DNA of 64,000 bases from positions 128,001 to 192,000 of the IMG/VR virus record IMGVR_UViG_3300002092_001784; one strand, written 5' to 3'. Below, piece by piece: positions 19,154 through 39,103 of this stretch. Numbering within the stretch: position 1 is the first letter of the stretch; the number at the start of each line of letters is the position of its first letter. Position numbers and translations under genes: made by a program. Below the pieces are notes generated by a model. It was given only the letters and a program-made list of their open reading frames with translations, did not search any database and had not been told where the DNA came from. The stretch comes from a virus. Its lineage: Duplodnaviria; Caudoviricetes.

Positions 19154-19606
19154 ATGTTAAAAATAAAAAATGTAAAGATGATTAATGTATCTGATTGGGA
19201 TAAATTAGTATCAGATACCTATGGGAAAATTTATGACTTTCAGCAACAACGAGGTTGCCAGCCAAGAGGTATCGTAAAAATAACTATTCCAGATGAAAAT
19301 TGGGAAGAAGAAGAAATGAATGACAAAATACCAGAGATTATAAATGATGAACGAAATAGGGGTGTTAAATTTGATGTTTGGCTGAATAGAGACCCTAAAG
19401 CTATGTTAAATCCATCTGATGCTGAACTAGAATCTTGCAATTATTATTATTATGACAGTAATAAAAAGGAATGGTGTGAAGATATTGGACACATCCGTTT
19501 ATTTTGGAGAAGAAACTTTTATCCATGTTTACAAAGTGTGGCTAATGACTTATATAAAAAAGGATTGATTGAAGCGGGTGATTACGCAATTGAAATTGAT
19601 TGGTAG
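19154..19606 (+). CDS. Hypothetical protein
   Basis: 150-aa ORF after boxed promoter. Confidence 0.75.
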   Translation: MLKIKNVKMINVSDWDKLVSDTYGKIYDFQQQRGCQPRGIVKITIPDENWEEEEMNDKIPEIINDERNRGVKFDVWLNRDPKAMLNPSDAELESCNYYYYDSNKKEWCEDIGHIRLFWRRNFYPCLQSVANDLYKKGLIEAGDYAIEIDW

Positions 19607-19881: not shown

Positions 19882-20145
19882 ATGGAAACGGTAGAATTAC
19901 AAAAAGAAATTGAACAGTTGAAATGGGATATTCAACAACATGATTTTTATTATGAGTATTCCGATGATAGTAGAGCATACCGAAACGGTGGAAATGAAGA
20001 ACGAAACATCATACAATCGATTCGTAGTATCTTAACCAAATCACCGGAAGTTGAAGAATCTTTATTACAAGAATGTGTAACCATTAAAACTGATTCAAAA
20101 CTTCAAAACCAAATCAAAGCGTTCTTTTCAAACGCTAAGAGGTAA
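19882..20145 (+). CDS. Hypothetical protein (HDFYYEYSDD motif)
   Basis: ORF after promoter. Confidence 0.7.
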   Translation: METVELQKEIEQLKWDIQQHDFYYEYSDDSRAYRNGGNEERNIIQSIRSILTKSPEVEESLLQECVTIKTDSKLQNQIKAFFSNAKR

Positions 20146-20156
20146 GTTATTTTAAT

Positions 20157-20228
20157 GGCGAGTTCGTCTAACGGTTAGGACAAATGGTTTTCATCCATTA
20201 AATAGGGTTTCGATTACCCTACTCGCTA
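20157..20228 (+). tRNA. tRNA-Glu (TTC)
   Basis: Acceptor GGCGAGT/ACTCGCT; anticodon arm AATGG-TTTTCAT-CCATT; T-loop TTCGATT; no encoded CCA. Confidence 0.9.
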
Positions 20229-20297
20229 CGATAAACCAAACACGCTAGGTGACGACCACAGGTGATATTGTTGGCAGCTCGGAAAGACGGCAAATAT

Positions 20298-20371
20298 GGT
20301 GCGTTAGGCAAATTGGCTAAGCCGTCAGCCCTTCAAGCTGAAGATTTCGGGATCGTACCCCGAACGCACTA
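20298..20371 (+). tRNA. Atypical tRNA, centred anticodon TTC (Glu-like), C33 and ATCG T-loop
   Basis: GGTGCGT/ACGCACT; TCAGC-CCTTCAA-GCTGA; TCGGG-ATCGTAC-CCCGA. Confidence 0.7.
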
Positions 20372-20389
20372 CACTTAGATAGTTTCATA

Positions 20390-20680
20390 ATTTAAGGTCA
20401 AGCCACATTATGTTGAGTGGAGTTTACTTCATTTGACGCCAGATGAAATTATCGAGGTAACGAAGGATTAGAGGTGGCTGTGACTACTTCGTTACCAGCG
20501 GGATAAATAATGGAAGTTAGTTGACAAACGGCTTAAAGAAAATGTTGACAGATACCGCCTGTATGGTAACCGGCCGCTACCTTAAAGGCTTGAATTGACA
20601 ACCATTGTTTTGAAAAATCTATGAGTAATCATAGTATCTTTGGGGGTAATTAACCAAAGATTAGAAGGTTCGAAACTTCA
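20390..20680 (+). ncRNA. Candidate structured ncRNA
   Basis: No ORF; GGTAACGAAG/CTTCGTTACC and AGCCAC/GTGGCT cross-pairing; 3' TCTTTGG/CCAAAGA hairpin and T-arm-like GAAG-GTTCGAAA-CTTC. Confidence 0.4.
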
Positions 20681-20681
20681 A

Positions 20682-20800
20682 AATGGTTTAGTGTATTGGG
20701 CACGGGTCAAACAGACTATTATAAAATAATATAGAACTGAAATAGCTGTGAGATAAATAATGTTGATTCCAGCATTGGGTTCGAATCCCAATAACCGTTT
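20682..20800 (+). ncRNA. tRNA-like element with 54-nt insert in place of the anticodon loop
   Basis: AATGGTT/AACCGTT acceptor, GTGT-ATTGG-GCAC D arm, ATTGGG-TTCGAAT-CCCAAT T arm. Confidence 0.55.
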
Positions 20801-20807
20801 TTAATGT

Positions 20808-20878
20808 AAAGTTATTAGTGTGAGGTCACACATCGGTATATAACCACTGATGCAAGGTTCGATTCCTTCATAACTTTC
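20808..20878 (+). ncRNA. tRNA-like element with 8-nt anticodon loop
   Basis: AAAGTTAT/ATAACTTT, GTGT-GAGGTC-ACAC, ATCGGT-ATATAACC-ACTGAT, AAGG-TTCGATT-CCTT. Confidence 0.55.
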
Positions 20879-20918
20879 TATACGAAAATTGTTCTTTGTA
20901 TATATTTATATTTAATAT

Positions 20919-20994
20919 GGTCTTAGGGGCTGCATGGAGTGGCCGTCTGCCTGTCACGCAGAATATCAGGAGGGATCGTTACCCTTTGGGACCG
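20919..20994 (+). tRNA. tRNA-Asp (GTC)
   Basis: GGTCTTA/TGGGACC; TCTGC-CTGTCAC-GCAGA; G discriminator; T-loop ATCGTTA. Confidence 0.88.
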
Positions 20995-21094
20995 CAAAAG
21001 AAATGGGATTGAAATAGGAAAACGGCAATTTTCCAATAGTAAATTTGGTTTCACTACTAAAAGGTAAGTTTGCCGACAAACCAAAAAGTAGTTT

Positions 21095-21164
21095 TTCTCA
21101 TTAGTTCAATTGGAAGAACCCCGGTAGGAACTGGGTGATGTAGGTTCGAGTCCTACATGGGAAT
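21095..21164 (+). ncRNA. tRNA-like element with collapsed anticodon loop
   Basis: TTCTCAT/ATGGGAA, GTTC-AATTGGAA-GAAC, CCCGGT-AGGA-ACTGGG, GTAGG-TTCGAGT-CCTAC. Confidence 0.6.
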
Positions 21165-21277
21165 CATAACATAGGTGGGTAGGTAGGATGCACAGAATGT
21201 ACTGTTAAACTAATGTGTAGGGTATCGCTTGTATGATAATAACAGTAGAGGTGTACAGTAACCTATGTTTTTTATTT

Positions 21278-21352
21278 GGGGTCGTAGATTAATTGGCTAA
21301 ATCACCTGATTTGCATTCAGGAGACTTGAGGGTTCGAAGCCCTTCGATTCCA
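21278..21352 (+). tRNA. tRNA-Ala (TGC)
   Basis: GGGGTCG/CGATTCC with G3:U70 identity pair; CCTGA-TTTGCAT-TCAGG. Confidence 0.92.
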
Positions 21353-21621
21353 CGAATACTAACACATTGGCTTTGTGTTGAATTTATCGGATAACATGCC
21401 GTTTACATTATTATGTAATAAAAGAAGCACCGATTGAAAGGAAAGTTCACAACTAAACCTGCTTAACCTTTGGAATGTAAAGGTAACTTATATCTTAAAG
21501 CCGTATTCGGGTTGGTGAGTAATGAGAGAACCTGCCTTTGCCGTTTCCACTAAACGAGTAAAGAAAAATCACATTAAATAACTCTACACAGTGGGGGATA
21601 TATCGGTGACCCACTAATTTC

Positions 21622-21698
21622 GGGCCTGTATCGGCTCTGGCTCATAACCAGTTGAAACCGTAATTGGTAGCATGTAGGTTCAATCCCTACCCGGCCCA
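21622..21698 (+). tRNA. D-armless tRNA-like gene, anticodon CAT, long variable arm
   Basis: GGGCCTG/CCGGCCC; CTGG-CTCATAA-CCAG; ACC-GTAATT-GGT variable stem; GTAGG-TTCAATC-CCTAC. Confidence 0.6.
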
Positions 21699-21750
21699 CT
21701 TTTATTATTTTCTTTTGGATATTTATGATTGAATTTAATTTATATCTGAA

Positions 21751-22386
21751 ATGAAAAAAGTATTAACATTATTATTTGCGGTATCCCTAACAGTATCCGT
21801 TTTTGGACAAGATACGGTTCGTATAGTCCATACAAACTACATAACAACTTTCAGCAAATCTCTAAAATATCCGGTTAAAGTAGAATGGACACTTACTGCT
21901 AATAGAGTTAATTGTGCTAAAAAACTCCCAAGACCAGCAGAGTTTAAGCCAGACCCACAGTTTCCTAACACAAATTATGCGTTGGATTATAAAAAAAGTG
22001 GATATGATAAAGGACACAATTGCCCAGATGATGATAACGCTTGTCAAACAACAGATATATTAGAGCAATCATTTTATTATACCAATGTGATGCCACAACC
22101 ACATAGTTCAAACGCAGGAGATTGGAAATCAGTTGAAACTCTATGCAGAAGTTTGGCAATAAAAGGAAACACAGTTCACATTTGGAGTGGTGGTATCGGT
22201 ATTCAAAAGAAAATTGGAAAAGATGGTATTTGTGTTCCAAAACAAACTTGGAAAGTGGTCTATACCGTAAACACAAAAACATACAAAGCATATCTGTTTA
22301 ACAATACAGATGAACCACAGAAGGGTGCAAACTCTCATTTGGTAGATAAATCAGTAATCGAAAAATTAACAGGTTTTAAGTTCTAA
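21751..22386 (+). CDS. Secreted DNA/RNA non-specific endonuclease (NucA/EndA family)
   Basis: Signal peptide; YDKGHNCP, FYYTNVMPQ..SNAG.W, VPK..WKVV. Confidence 0.88.
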   Translation: MKKVLTLLFAVSLTVSVFGQDTVRIVHTNYITTFSKSLKYPVKVEWTLTANRVNCAKKLPRPAEFKPDPQFPNTNYALDYKKSGYDKGHNCPDDDNACQTTDILEQSFYYTNVMPQPHSSNAGDWKSVETLCRSLAIKGNTVHIWSGGIGIQKKIGKDGICVPKQTWKVVYTVNTKTYKAYLFNNTDEPQKGANSHLVDKSVIEKLTGFKF

Positions 22387-37783: not shown

Positions 37784-39103
37784 ATGAAATTAAAAGAACC
37801 TAAAAATTCAAACTATGCAGCAATAGTTGTACAAATCAAAACTATTGTTCCTTTGGAAAATTGTGACAATGTAGTTGCTGCACAAATTATGGGAAATCAG
37901 GTTATTGTAAGTAAAGATGTACAAATCGAAGATATTGGTTTGTATTTTCCATTGGAAACTCAACTAACCGAACCATATCTTGCCAACAACAATCTGTATA
38001 AGGATGCCGAACTGAATAAGGATGCAACAAAAAAAGGATATTTTGAAAAGAATGGTCGTATTCGTTGTGTGAAGTTTAGAGGTAATAAATCAGAAGGTTT
38101 ATTTATGCCGATACAATCTTTATCTTTTGTCCTAAAGTCCCCACAATCGTTGGAAATTGGGCAAGAATTTGATGAATTGAATGGTATTGTATTGTGTCAG
38201 AAGTACATAGTTAAACTAAAGGGTGAACCCGGTGTTCCCGGTCAGAAGAAACAGAAAATCGGAAAGAAGGCCAAATCAAAACTGATTGAAAGTCAATTCC
38301 GTTTTCACGAAGATACTTCTATGTTATTCAGAAATCTACATCGTATTAATCCGAACGATATTATTAGTATAACTTACAAAGTGCATGGTACATCTGCAAT
38401 CTCTTCCAAACTGCTATGTAAGCGGCCATTAAAGTGGTATGAAACTGCATTGCAGAAATTGGGTGTAAAAATTGTGGACACTCATTATGATTACATTTAC
38501 TCAAGCCGTAAGGTTGTTAAAAACTCCGAATTGCGTGATACTGATAACTCTTTTTATAAAGAGGACATTTGGGGTATTACTCATACTGAATTGAAAGAGT
38601 TTTTGCAGGATGGTATGACAATCTACTATGAAGTGGTTGGGTATTTACCTAACGGTTCGTACATTCAAGGACCATATGATTACGGATGTGAAGCCGGTCA
38701 GCATAAAATTATGATTTACCGTATTACCTACACTAACCCATCAGGTAAGGTATTTGAGTTTTCAGTGAAGCAGGTTAAAGATTGGTGTAAAGAACGTGGG
38801 TTGGAAACCGTACCGCACCTTTACTATGGATACGCTAAAGATTTCTATGATATATACAATGTAAACGGTGATTTATCCGAAACACACATTGACGGATGGC
38901 GTGACGGGTTTTTACAAACTGTAAAAGATAAATACAACGAAAAAGATTGCTACCTTTGTGAAGCAAGAGTGCCCGAAGAAGGTGTAGTAATCCGTATTGA
39001 AAAGAATGAGTTTGAAGCTTATAAGGCAAAATCAAATCGATTCTATGAGTTTGAGACCAAACTGTTAGATAAAGGTGAATCAAACATCGAAGATGAAAAC
39101 TAA
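37784..39103 (+). CDS. ATP-dependent RNA ligase (Rnl2/DRB0094-like) with N-terminal OB-like domain
   Basis: Motif I TYKVHGTS, motif III YEVVG, motif IV EEGVVIR, motif V YKAKS. Confidence 0.85.
   Translation: MKLKEPKNSNYAAIVVQIKTIVPLENCDNVVAAQIMGNQVIVSKDVQIEDIGLYFPLETQLTEPYLANNNLYKDAELNKDATKKGYFEKNGRIRCVKFRGNKSEGLFMPIQSLSFVLKSPQSLEIGQEFDELNGIVLCQKYIVKLKGEPGVPGQKKQKIGKKAKSKLIESQFRFHEDTSMLFRNLHRINPNDIISITYKVHGTSAISSKLLCKRPLKWYETALQKLGVKIVDTHYDYIYSSRKVVKNSELRDTDNSFYKEDIWGITHTELKEFLQDGMTIYYEVVGYLPNGSYIQGPYDYGCEAGQHKIMIYRITYTNPSGKVFEFSVKQVKDWCKERGLETVPHLYYGYAKDFYDIYNVNGDLSETHIDGWRDGFLQTVKDKYNEKDCYLCEARVPEEGVVIRIEKNEFEAYKAKSNRFYEFETKLLDKGESNIEDEN

Follow-up and report, generated by a model that had tools for sequence, protein, structure and literature searches.

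Why would a phage carry genes that have the shape of a transfer RNA (tRNA) and lack the loop with which a tRNA reads its codon? The question is raised by a tRNA locus in a freshwater phage (Caudoviricetes; IMG/VR record IMGVR_UViG_3300002092_001784; 266,153 bp; rated complete by CheckV; G+C content, ~33%). We analyzed a 64,000-nt window of this genome (bases 128001 to 192000 of the record), and positions below are those of the window unless they are given as genome positions. Three such elements, referred to here as E1, E2, and E3, lie in the locus:

20682 to 20800, plus strand: E1, a tRNA frame in which 54 nt (20710 to 20763) separate the two strands of a weak anticodon stem
20808 to 20878, plus strand: E2, a tRNA-shaped element with an 8-bp acceptor stem, a 4-bp T stem, and the 8-nt loop AUAUAACC
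21095 to 21164, plus strand: E3, a tRNA body that is canonical except for its anticodon arm, which has the loop AGGA

The answer that we favor, at a probability of roughly 0.4, is that E1 to E3 are tRNA-derived, nondecoding RNAs that consist of a tRNA body and are made together with their operon. An earlier note on this DNA had described three tRNA look-alikes here with destroyed anticodon loops and intact acceptor, D, and T arms. Rederivation of the coordinates by hand confirmed all three elements, and the described pattern was borne out for each of them. The acceptor, D, and T helices and the elbow nucleotides (i.e., G18G19 and a T loop of the form UUCRANY) are present throughout, and none of the elements has the canonical 7-nt loop with U33 and a purine at position 37 (E1, 54 nt and A33; E2, 8 nt; E3, 4 or 6 nt). 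E1, E2, and E3 are unable to decode normally.

All 21 stem pairs of E3 (7 + 4 + 5 + 5) are intact, and its elbow is complete (U8, A14, G18G19, A21, and UUCGAGU as the T loop). The stem CCGGU/ACUGG closes the 4-nt loop AGGA in the canonical register; in the register chosen by ARAGORN, the loop has 6 nt (UAGGAA), position 26 is absent, and the gene is reported as "tRNA-??? (gg)." On the Rfam tRNA model (RF00005; gathering cutoff, 29 bits), E3 scored above the cutoff at 42.1 bits (E, 1.5e-5 in the window), and the decoding tRNAs of the genome scored 43.6 to 68 bits. The 8-bp acceptor stem of E2 (AAAGUUAU/AUAACUUU) is accompanied by the D stem GUGU/ACAC, a 5-bp anticodon stem (UCGGU/ACUGA) closing the 8-nt loop, and the T stem AAGG/CCUU with the loop UUCGAUU and an unpaired C at 20869. 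The acceptor stem of E1 (AAUGGUU/AACCGUU; 7 bp, one of them G-U) can be extended outward through A20681-U20800, its D stem is GUGU/GCAC (loop, AUUGG), and its T stem is UUGGG/CCCAA (loop, UUCGAAU), with an extra U (20792) where the T stem meets the acceptor strand. Three Watson-Crick and two G-U pairs form its anticodon stem (GGUCA, 20705 to 20709; UGAUU, 20764 to 20768), which encloses exactly the 54 nt. E1 and E2 both have short D loops (5 to 6 nt) and one extra base beside the T stem. A check with ARAGORN and Rfam, as the earlier note had proposed, was positive in both programs for E3 alone: E2 scored 23.6 bits on RF00005, under the cutoff, and received no ARAGORN call, and E1 had no match to RF00005 and was called by ARAGORN only when introns were allowed, in an implausible model.

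The elements are not assembly errors, since an independent ENA scaffold (L128) agrees base for base over 5.7 kb, except for an N-run gap near 19362 to 19380, and contigs from four sequencing runs contained zero variants in 20600 to 21400.

The case for maintenance is best for E2, intermediate and undecided for E3, and weakest for E1, which may simply be a disrupted gene. A pattern scan with the D arm and T arm of E2 returned 15 contigs, eight of which hold one and the same tRNA-like gene. A second scan (the central motif followed by the T arm) brought the total to ~14 IMG/VR contigs with six sequence variants:

E2-like family: contigs L130, L131, L134, L136, L139 to L142, L147, L149, L155, and L164 to L166, from uncultured phages

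E2 and the family have in common the D arm UAGUGU..ACAC, the T arm AAGGUUCGAUUCCUU, and the central 11-nt motif GUAUAYAACCA, which is found in neither E1 nor E3. The family center GGUCCGUAUACAACC includes GUAUACAACCA, to which the E2 counterpart GUAUAUAACCA is identical at 10 of 11 positions. Both have an 8-bp acceptor stem and a 4-bp T stem; the acceptor sequences are unrelated (AAAGUUAU in E2 and CCCGGUUG in the family). Whereas E2 has a 5-bp anticodon-like stem, an 8-nt loop, and no encoded CCA, the family center forms not an anticodon arm but a stem of 3 bp that closes a 9-nt loop, and the encoded 3' end is G-CCA in five of the six variants (G-CUA in one). All copies of the family are embedded in dense tRNA arrays, with a few bases separating them from the adjacent genes (e.g., Thr-element-Arg in L140). 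The family locus in L134/L131 also holds homologs of this phage's tRNA-Glu, of its tRNA-Glu with an AUCGUA T loop, and of its tRNA-Asp with an AUCGUU T loop, plus two further odd tRNA-like genes. A motif, GTGTGTTC(C/A)TATATG, recurs just 5' of the tRNA-like genes in L134 (1383 to 1400, 1612 to 1628, and 2598 to 2612) and may be a promoter or processing site.

Among the six variants, both partners had changed in four pairs (1-72, CG/UA; 4-69, GC/AU; 10-25, GC/AU; and the first T-stem pair, AU/GC), compared with 0 in all slid controls, and the 15 central bases were invariant. Because the stems covary and the center does not vary, the family carries the sequence signature of a functional structured RNA whose center would be constrained in sequence. 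The suggestion in the earlier note that the three elements are nondecoding tRNA mimics, to be checked by covariation in related phages, thus gains comparative support for E2 through these compensatory pairs and the invariant center, and gains none for E1 and E3, which have no relatives in our searches (see below). In one genome each of 185,579 prokaryote species, the family pattern had zero matches, so that the family looks phage specific. We found no description of a GUAUAC-centered family or of loop-less phage tRNA mimics in open-access text. The D arm UAGUGU-AAUGGUA-RCAC, typical of phage tRNA-Gln, is common to E1, E2, the family, and the genes next to GOLLD RNA described below, which suggests that all of these derive from Gln-type tRNAs.

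Loop-defective tRNA-shaped genes are rare generally and concentrated in this lineage. ARAGORN reported odd-sized loops for 5 of 1,508 tRNAs in 120 other phage tRNA arrays and for 2 of 24 in this genome, namely, E3 and a gene that follows GOLLD:

Genome 102724 to 103131 (L168:7725-8132): GOLLD RNA, 275 bits
Genome 103251 to 103320 (L168:8252-8324): tRNA-like gene with the 6-nt loop AUUCCA, ~120 nt after GOLLD

Beyond these two, the genome has E1, E2, a D-armless element in the same locus as E1 to E3, and three insert-bearing genes at genome 97 to 101 kb. A related complete 288-kb phage (the record of L132) has ~4 aberrant tRNA-like genes, and immediately after its GOLLD (L132:4217-4628) comes a tRNA-like gene of the same frame whose loop has 8 nt (L132:4636-4706). 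In E1 to E3 and the 6-nt-loop gene, all lesions are in the 7-nt loop, and the 64 pooled acceptor, D, and T pairs include three mismatches. An old pseudogene would be expected to have broken stems, and their preservation therefore counts in favor of retained tRNA bodies.

E1 to E3 share their locus with ordinary tRNA genes and other features:

20157 to 20229, plus strand: tRNA-Glu(UUC), the first gene of the locus (ARAGORN and Rfam tRNA model)
20298 to 20372, plus strand: a second tRNA-Glu(UUC), with C33 (loop, CCUUCAA) and the T loop AUCGUAC
20390 to 20680: a stretch of ~290 nt free of open reading frames (ORFs), between the second tRNA-Glu gene and E1
20610 to 20637, plus strand: a sigma-70-like promoter match, TTGAAA-16-TAGTAT (by consensus), ~45 nt 5' of E1
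20919 to 20995, plus strand: tRNA-Asp(GUC) (ARAGORN), a functional neighbor between E2 and E3, with the T loop AUCGUUA
21278 to 21353, plus strand: tRNA-Ala(UGC), after which the locus has no further canonical tRNA (ARAGORN and Rfam tRNA model)
21622 to 21698, plus strand: the D-armless tRNA-like element, the fourth aberrant member of the locus (RF00005, 27.5 bits), with a perfect loop, CUCAUAA

The region 20146 to 21750 is occupied by this locus and contains no plausible ORF. The earlier note had also offered processing punctuation as a role, which we dropped: a locus without ORFs has nothing to punctuate. E1 is separated from E2 by 7 nt, and E2 from tRNA-Asp by 40 nt. The phage has its main tRNA arrays elsewhere, at genome 97 to 114 kb (i.e., 20 to 50 kb upstream), beside a transfer-messenger RNA (tmRNA) and GOLLD. 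Promoter-like matches in the region are no more numerous than in shuffled sequences. The ORF-free stretch before E1 has three TTGACA hexamers within 80 nt (20521 to 20600).

We propose that promoter-like sites just 5' of E1 drive a common transcript of E1 to E3, tRNA-Asp, and tRNA-Ala. RNase P and 3' processing enzymes would excise them, and CCA would then be added, a step that would be needed because none of the three encodes CCA. RNase P and the enzymes of 3' processing and CCA addition require only the acceptor/T-arm half of a tRNA, and E1 to E3 should therefore mature as tRNAs do. The matured RNAs would keep the "top half" of a tRNA (i.e., the acceptor/T-arm helix and the D/T elbow), and such bodies could occupy proteins that recognize tRNA shape without any codon pairing. 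Their likeliest use would be competition with real tRNAs for a tRNA-binding factor, such as a tRNA-cleaving defense nuclease of the host or a modification or repair enzyme.

Several bacterial defenses cut the anticodon or variable loops of tRNAs (PMC10264068, PMC11464382, PMC11555353, and PMC13096335). The phage encodes an RNA ligase (37784 to 39103; phrog_968, RNA_ligase domain) that, judged from its sequence, fits tRNA repair rather than splicing, and the presence of such a ligase fits pressure from tRNA-cutting defenses. Given this ligase and these defenses, a decoy or competitor role against anticodon nucleases is the most attractive one that we can infer. Phage decoding tRNAs escape or replace nuclease targets in mycobacteriophages (PMC10264068) and in T5, where tRNA-Lys acts against PARIS (PMC11464382) and tRNA-Tyr acts against the retron PtuAB (PMC11555353). 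As with E1 to E3, these are genes of phage arrays with loops unlike those of the host, and conflict with tRNA-cutting defenses is their proposed driver. They keep a 7-nt loop and decode, whereas E1 to E3 cannot and could act as competitors only, a role that we found shown for no phage RNA in open-access text.

Other known RNAs offer partial parallels. The Bacillus cereus tRNA-Other is tRNA derived, is processed like a tRNA, and does not serve the ribosome; it is aminoacylated and, unlike E1 to E3, has an anticodon loop of normal size. The species 1 and species 2 RNAs of T4 (rnaC, 139 nt; rnaD, 119 nt; NC_000866, 70908 to 71171) are small stable RNAs of unknown function that, like E1 to E3, lie in a tRNA cluster beside ordinary tRNAs. 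A tRNA-like T arm (CCGGGUUCGAAUCCCGG) stands at the end of rnaC and is closed by a terminal helix. Beyond the T arm, rnaC and rnaD have no sequence similarity to E1 to E3; they lack a recognizable D arm and reach only 17.5 bits (tRNA-Sec model), whereas E2 and E3 are tRNA-sized complete cloverleaves. In addition, the fold of rnaC is far better than that of its shuffled sequences (z = −4.6), which is not so for E1 (z = −1.6).

Phage tRNA genes are viewed today as weapons against tRNA-cutting defenses, and every known case is still a working tRNA. If nondecoding tRNA shapes are kept by selection, phages would be exploiting the tRNA body itself (as a scaffold, sponge, or competitor) and not its capacity to decode. 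The "pseudo-tRNAs" discarded by annotation pipelines, and perhaps the stable RNAs of the T4 cluster, would then have a possible role, and the E2-like family offers a concrete experimental target (~70 nt, covarying stems, an invariant center, and CCA in most variants). A broader proposal, that RNAs reduced to a tRNA body without an anticodon form a class maintained by large phages (E2, the GUAUAC family, and the GOLLD-adjacent genes), mature like tRNAs, and serve as noncleavable competitors or sponges for host defense nucleases or other tRNA-binding factors, seems to us rather unlikely. The loops are palindromic (GUAUAC in the family and UAUAUA in E2) and, speculatively, might pair with one another.

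An alternative that we regard as quite possible is that E1 to E3 are young tRNA pseudogenes, i.e., redundant genes inactivated in the anticodon loop by small insertions/deletions (E2 and E3) or by an insertion (E1) and not yet decayed or deleted. The locus would then be a snapshot of the speed of tRNA gene turnover in giant phages. Such genes would hardly be expected to confine the lesions of four elements to the loop and to spare nearly all other stem pairs, as described above, and the E2 loop bears the invariant motif of a covarying family. No close paralog of E1, E2, or E3 exists among the tRNAs of the genome, so that the elements are not recent copies and no fresh duplicate is at hand. Dead DNA is usually lost fast from phage genomes, and these ~260 nt persist, identical in samples from at least four studies.

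A series of other results weighs against maintained tRNA-body RNAs, and much of it is what pseudogenes would lead one to expect. Decoding tRNAs for all 20 amino acids are present in the phage even without E1 to E3. The insert of E1, described in the earlier note as a 54-nt self-pairing insert, has that length and does not have that property: it is AU rich, and its structure is no better than that of shuffled sequence (20716 to 20768, −1.1 kcal/mol; shuffle mean, −2.6; z = +0.91). In the minimum free energy fold of the whole of E1, a variable-arm-like hairpin (AUGUUG/CAGCAU) is favored over the GGUCA/UGAUU stem. The phage's tRNAs evolve fast and loosely in general, with odd D arms in tRNA-Tyr and tRNA-Pro and C33 in the second tRNA-Glu. 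No population variation was seen across the elements in the DNA contigs of the four runs or in the ENA scaffold, and such complete identity carries no information on constraint within the species. No RNA run holding the locus is listed.

Decay does occur in the locus. A 14.1-kb contig from a co-occurring phage matches 21488 to 21611; beyond the match it goes on with GGGCCCTTAGCTCAGCCTGGTCA, in which acceptor and D arm are normal, where this phage has the D-armless element (21622 to 21698). The element thus seems to have arisen by loss of the D arm from a tRNA whose counterpart in the co-occurring phage is normal.

The link between E2 and the family is also less than firm, and E2 is best described as a probable diverged relative rather than a proven member. 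A covariance model of the six variants aligned E2 end to end, with UCGGUAUAUAA matched to UCCGUAUACAA, and gave it 18.7 bits, below ordinary tRNAs (tRNA-Gln, 26; tRNA-Asn, 23.7) and E3 (21.7), so that the model does not establish E2 as a member; it was built from only six near-identical sequences and is biased to their GC-rich acceptor stem. The best match to this model in the genome was the 6-nt-loop gene after GOLLD (34 bits).

Relatives of E1 and E3 were not detected in the IMG/VR or metagenome collections searched; the scans used IUPAC patterns that are exact to the chosen letters, so that diverged relatives may be missed. With blastn, 20100 to 21800 matched only generic tRNA pieces in GenBank phages. 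By synteny of the flanking proteins (the endonuclease at 21751 to 22386 and the ORF at 19154 to 19606), relatives at 46 to 64% identity carry protein genes beside the endonuclease in place of this tRNA locus. A 234-kb relative (G001) has normal tRNAs only, and the second tRNA locus is absent from the 288-kb GOLLD-bearing relative and from four other records. In the metagenome scans, the E1-E2 junction pattern had 0 matches, and the E2 motif with the T arm had two, both unrelated.

The D arm of E3 is generic, and a scan with its D arm and T arm found mostly ordinary tRNAs; when a short center was required, seven IMG/VR contigs were returned, none of them related to E3. Among these contigs, some tRNA frames have 3-nt loops (UGU and UUA) on a normal stem (L105:1687-1736 and L025:2594-2644), and in four contigs (L013:3729-3771, L029, L169, and L170) a 13-nt segment replaces the anticodon arm. 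Anticodon-less tRNA frames recur in phages, a recurrence that is uninformative on E3 itself.

A scan for the E1 frame with a long center found other insert-bearing families with the same D arm and GC-rich structured inserts, none of which has insert sequence in common with E1. A fit of E1 to the consensus fold of the insert families was discounted because it rests on AU pairs. Phages carry RNA families of ~125 nt with a tRNA-Gln-like frame and ~75-nt structured inserts, some with an encoded CCA:

Insert-bearing RNAs of ~125 nt: L289:2428-2554, L292:9806-9931, L299:9199-9322, and L305:1238-1358; also in L291, L293, L297, L300, and L302

An insert hairpin, AUCCUG-N4-AAGGAU, is conserved in these families, and their stems covary in a small alignment. 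Further candidate features of the locus were rejected. The "terminator-like" match at 20774 to 20792 is the E1 T arm followed by the U-rich acceptor strand, and the direct repeat GAGATAAATAATG (20750 versus 20500), like a 14-codon frame from 20760 and an inverted repeat (21099/21205), is at chance level for AT-rich DNA.

It is improbable, in our view, that E1 and E2, together with 20390 to 20680, form part of, or a handle for, a larger structured RNA, on the model of the tRNA-like genes after GOLLD. The idea draws on the loop-defective tRNA-like gene that follows GOLLD both in this genome and in the 288-kb phage, on the position of E1 directly after ~290 ORF-free nt, and on reports that GOLLD loci lie in tRNA islands with tRNA or pseudo-tRNA genes within or beside them (PMC6582537; bioRxiv 10.1101/2024.12.08.627333). 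The GOLLD-linked pseudo-tRNAs are likewise aberrant tRNA-like genes in phage tRNA islands; E1 to E3 lie 45 kb from the GOLLD of this genome, in a second tRNA locus, where no large RNA was detected. No Rfam family was found in 20390 to 20680 even at E values up to 10, the stretch has neither a paralog in the genome nor a relative in any fetched locus, and the several promoter-like hexamers in it make a plain promoter region the simpler explanation.

Nonstandard decoding, in which the 8-nt loop of E2 would read a four-base codon (+1) and the short loop of E3 would promote a −1 shift at certain sites of phage genes, is very improbable. Laboratory frameshift-suppressor tRNAs do have 8-nt loops, and the E2 loop can be read as A32-U33-AUA-A37 with extra bases. 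Position 37 or 38 of E2 would be a C, however, E3 has only four loop bases in the canonical register, E1 has no loop, and the family center, with a loop of 9 nt on 3 bp, is not an anticodon arm. Overlapping reading-frame pairs, by a crude count, showed no +1 excess (+1, 36; −1, 53).

That E1 is an intron-containing tRNA whose 54-nt insert is excised and whose halves are joined by the ligase at 37784, as the earlier note had also considered, can be dismissed as hardly credible: the insert does sit between the halves of the anticodon stem and the phage does encode an RNA ligase, but that ligase is of the repair type, the flanks (GGUCA-AACAGA...AUGU-UGAUU) lack U33 and offer the stem no plausible anticodon, the sequence that follows the stem (AACAGAC, with A at 33) does not allow a canonical 7-nt loop to be rebuilt, a group I core would not fit into 54 nt, no Rfam intron family matched at E values up to 10, the splicing endonuclease (PF01974) and RtcB (PF01139) are absent from the complete genome and were detected in control genomes, and the sole ARAGORN solution uses a different stem, with a broken D arm and an AUU anticodon.

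Departures from the canonical tRNA form extend to the decoding tRNAs of the phage. The T loop of tRNA-Asp (AUCGUUA) replaces UUCRANY, and the Rfam tRNA model misses this gene. A pattern made of its anticodon arm and T arm matched at least 119 IMG/VR contigs, which by this pattern makes tRNA-Asp(GUC) of this kind a widespread phage type. Both Gly tRNAs (genome 112785 and 112974) have AUCGUA T loops, as the second tRNA-Glu does. The Glu/Glu pair is homologous in L134, where the homolog of the second gene has the usual U33 (loop, CUUUCAA). The tRNA-Tyr(GUA) (genome 103904 to 103972) and tRNA-Pro(UGG) (genome 112128 to 112202) genes combine canonical anticodon loops with aberrant D arms, and both are missed by ARAGORN and Rfam. 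Three tRNAs with Leu anticodons (CAA, UAA, and UAG; genome 104250 to 104323, 104411 to 104486, and 108155 to 108229) are only 74 to 76 nt in length and have no long variable arm, a feature that, to our knowledge, is always present in bacterial tRNA-Leu. Just before the normal tRNA-Trp gene stands a tRNA-like gene (genome 105011 to 105092) whose anticodon loop has CCA (Trp); its variable arm is long, its D arm is odd, and it scores 31.8 bits on the tRNA-Sec model. The tmRNA is encoded at genome 95624 to 96005 (L168:625-1006; 83 bits), and the 288-kb relative also encodes one (L132:2364-2738).

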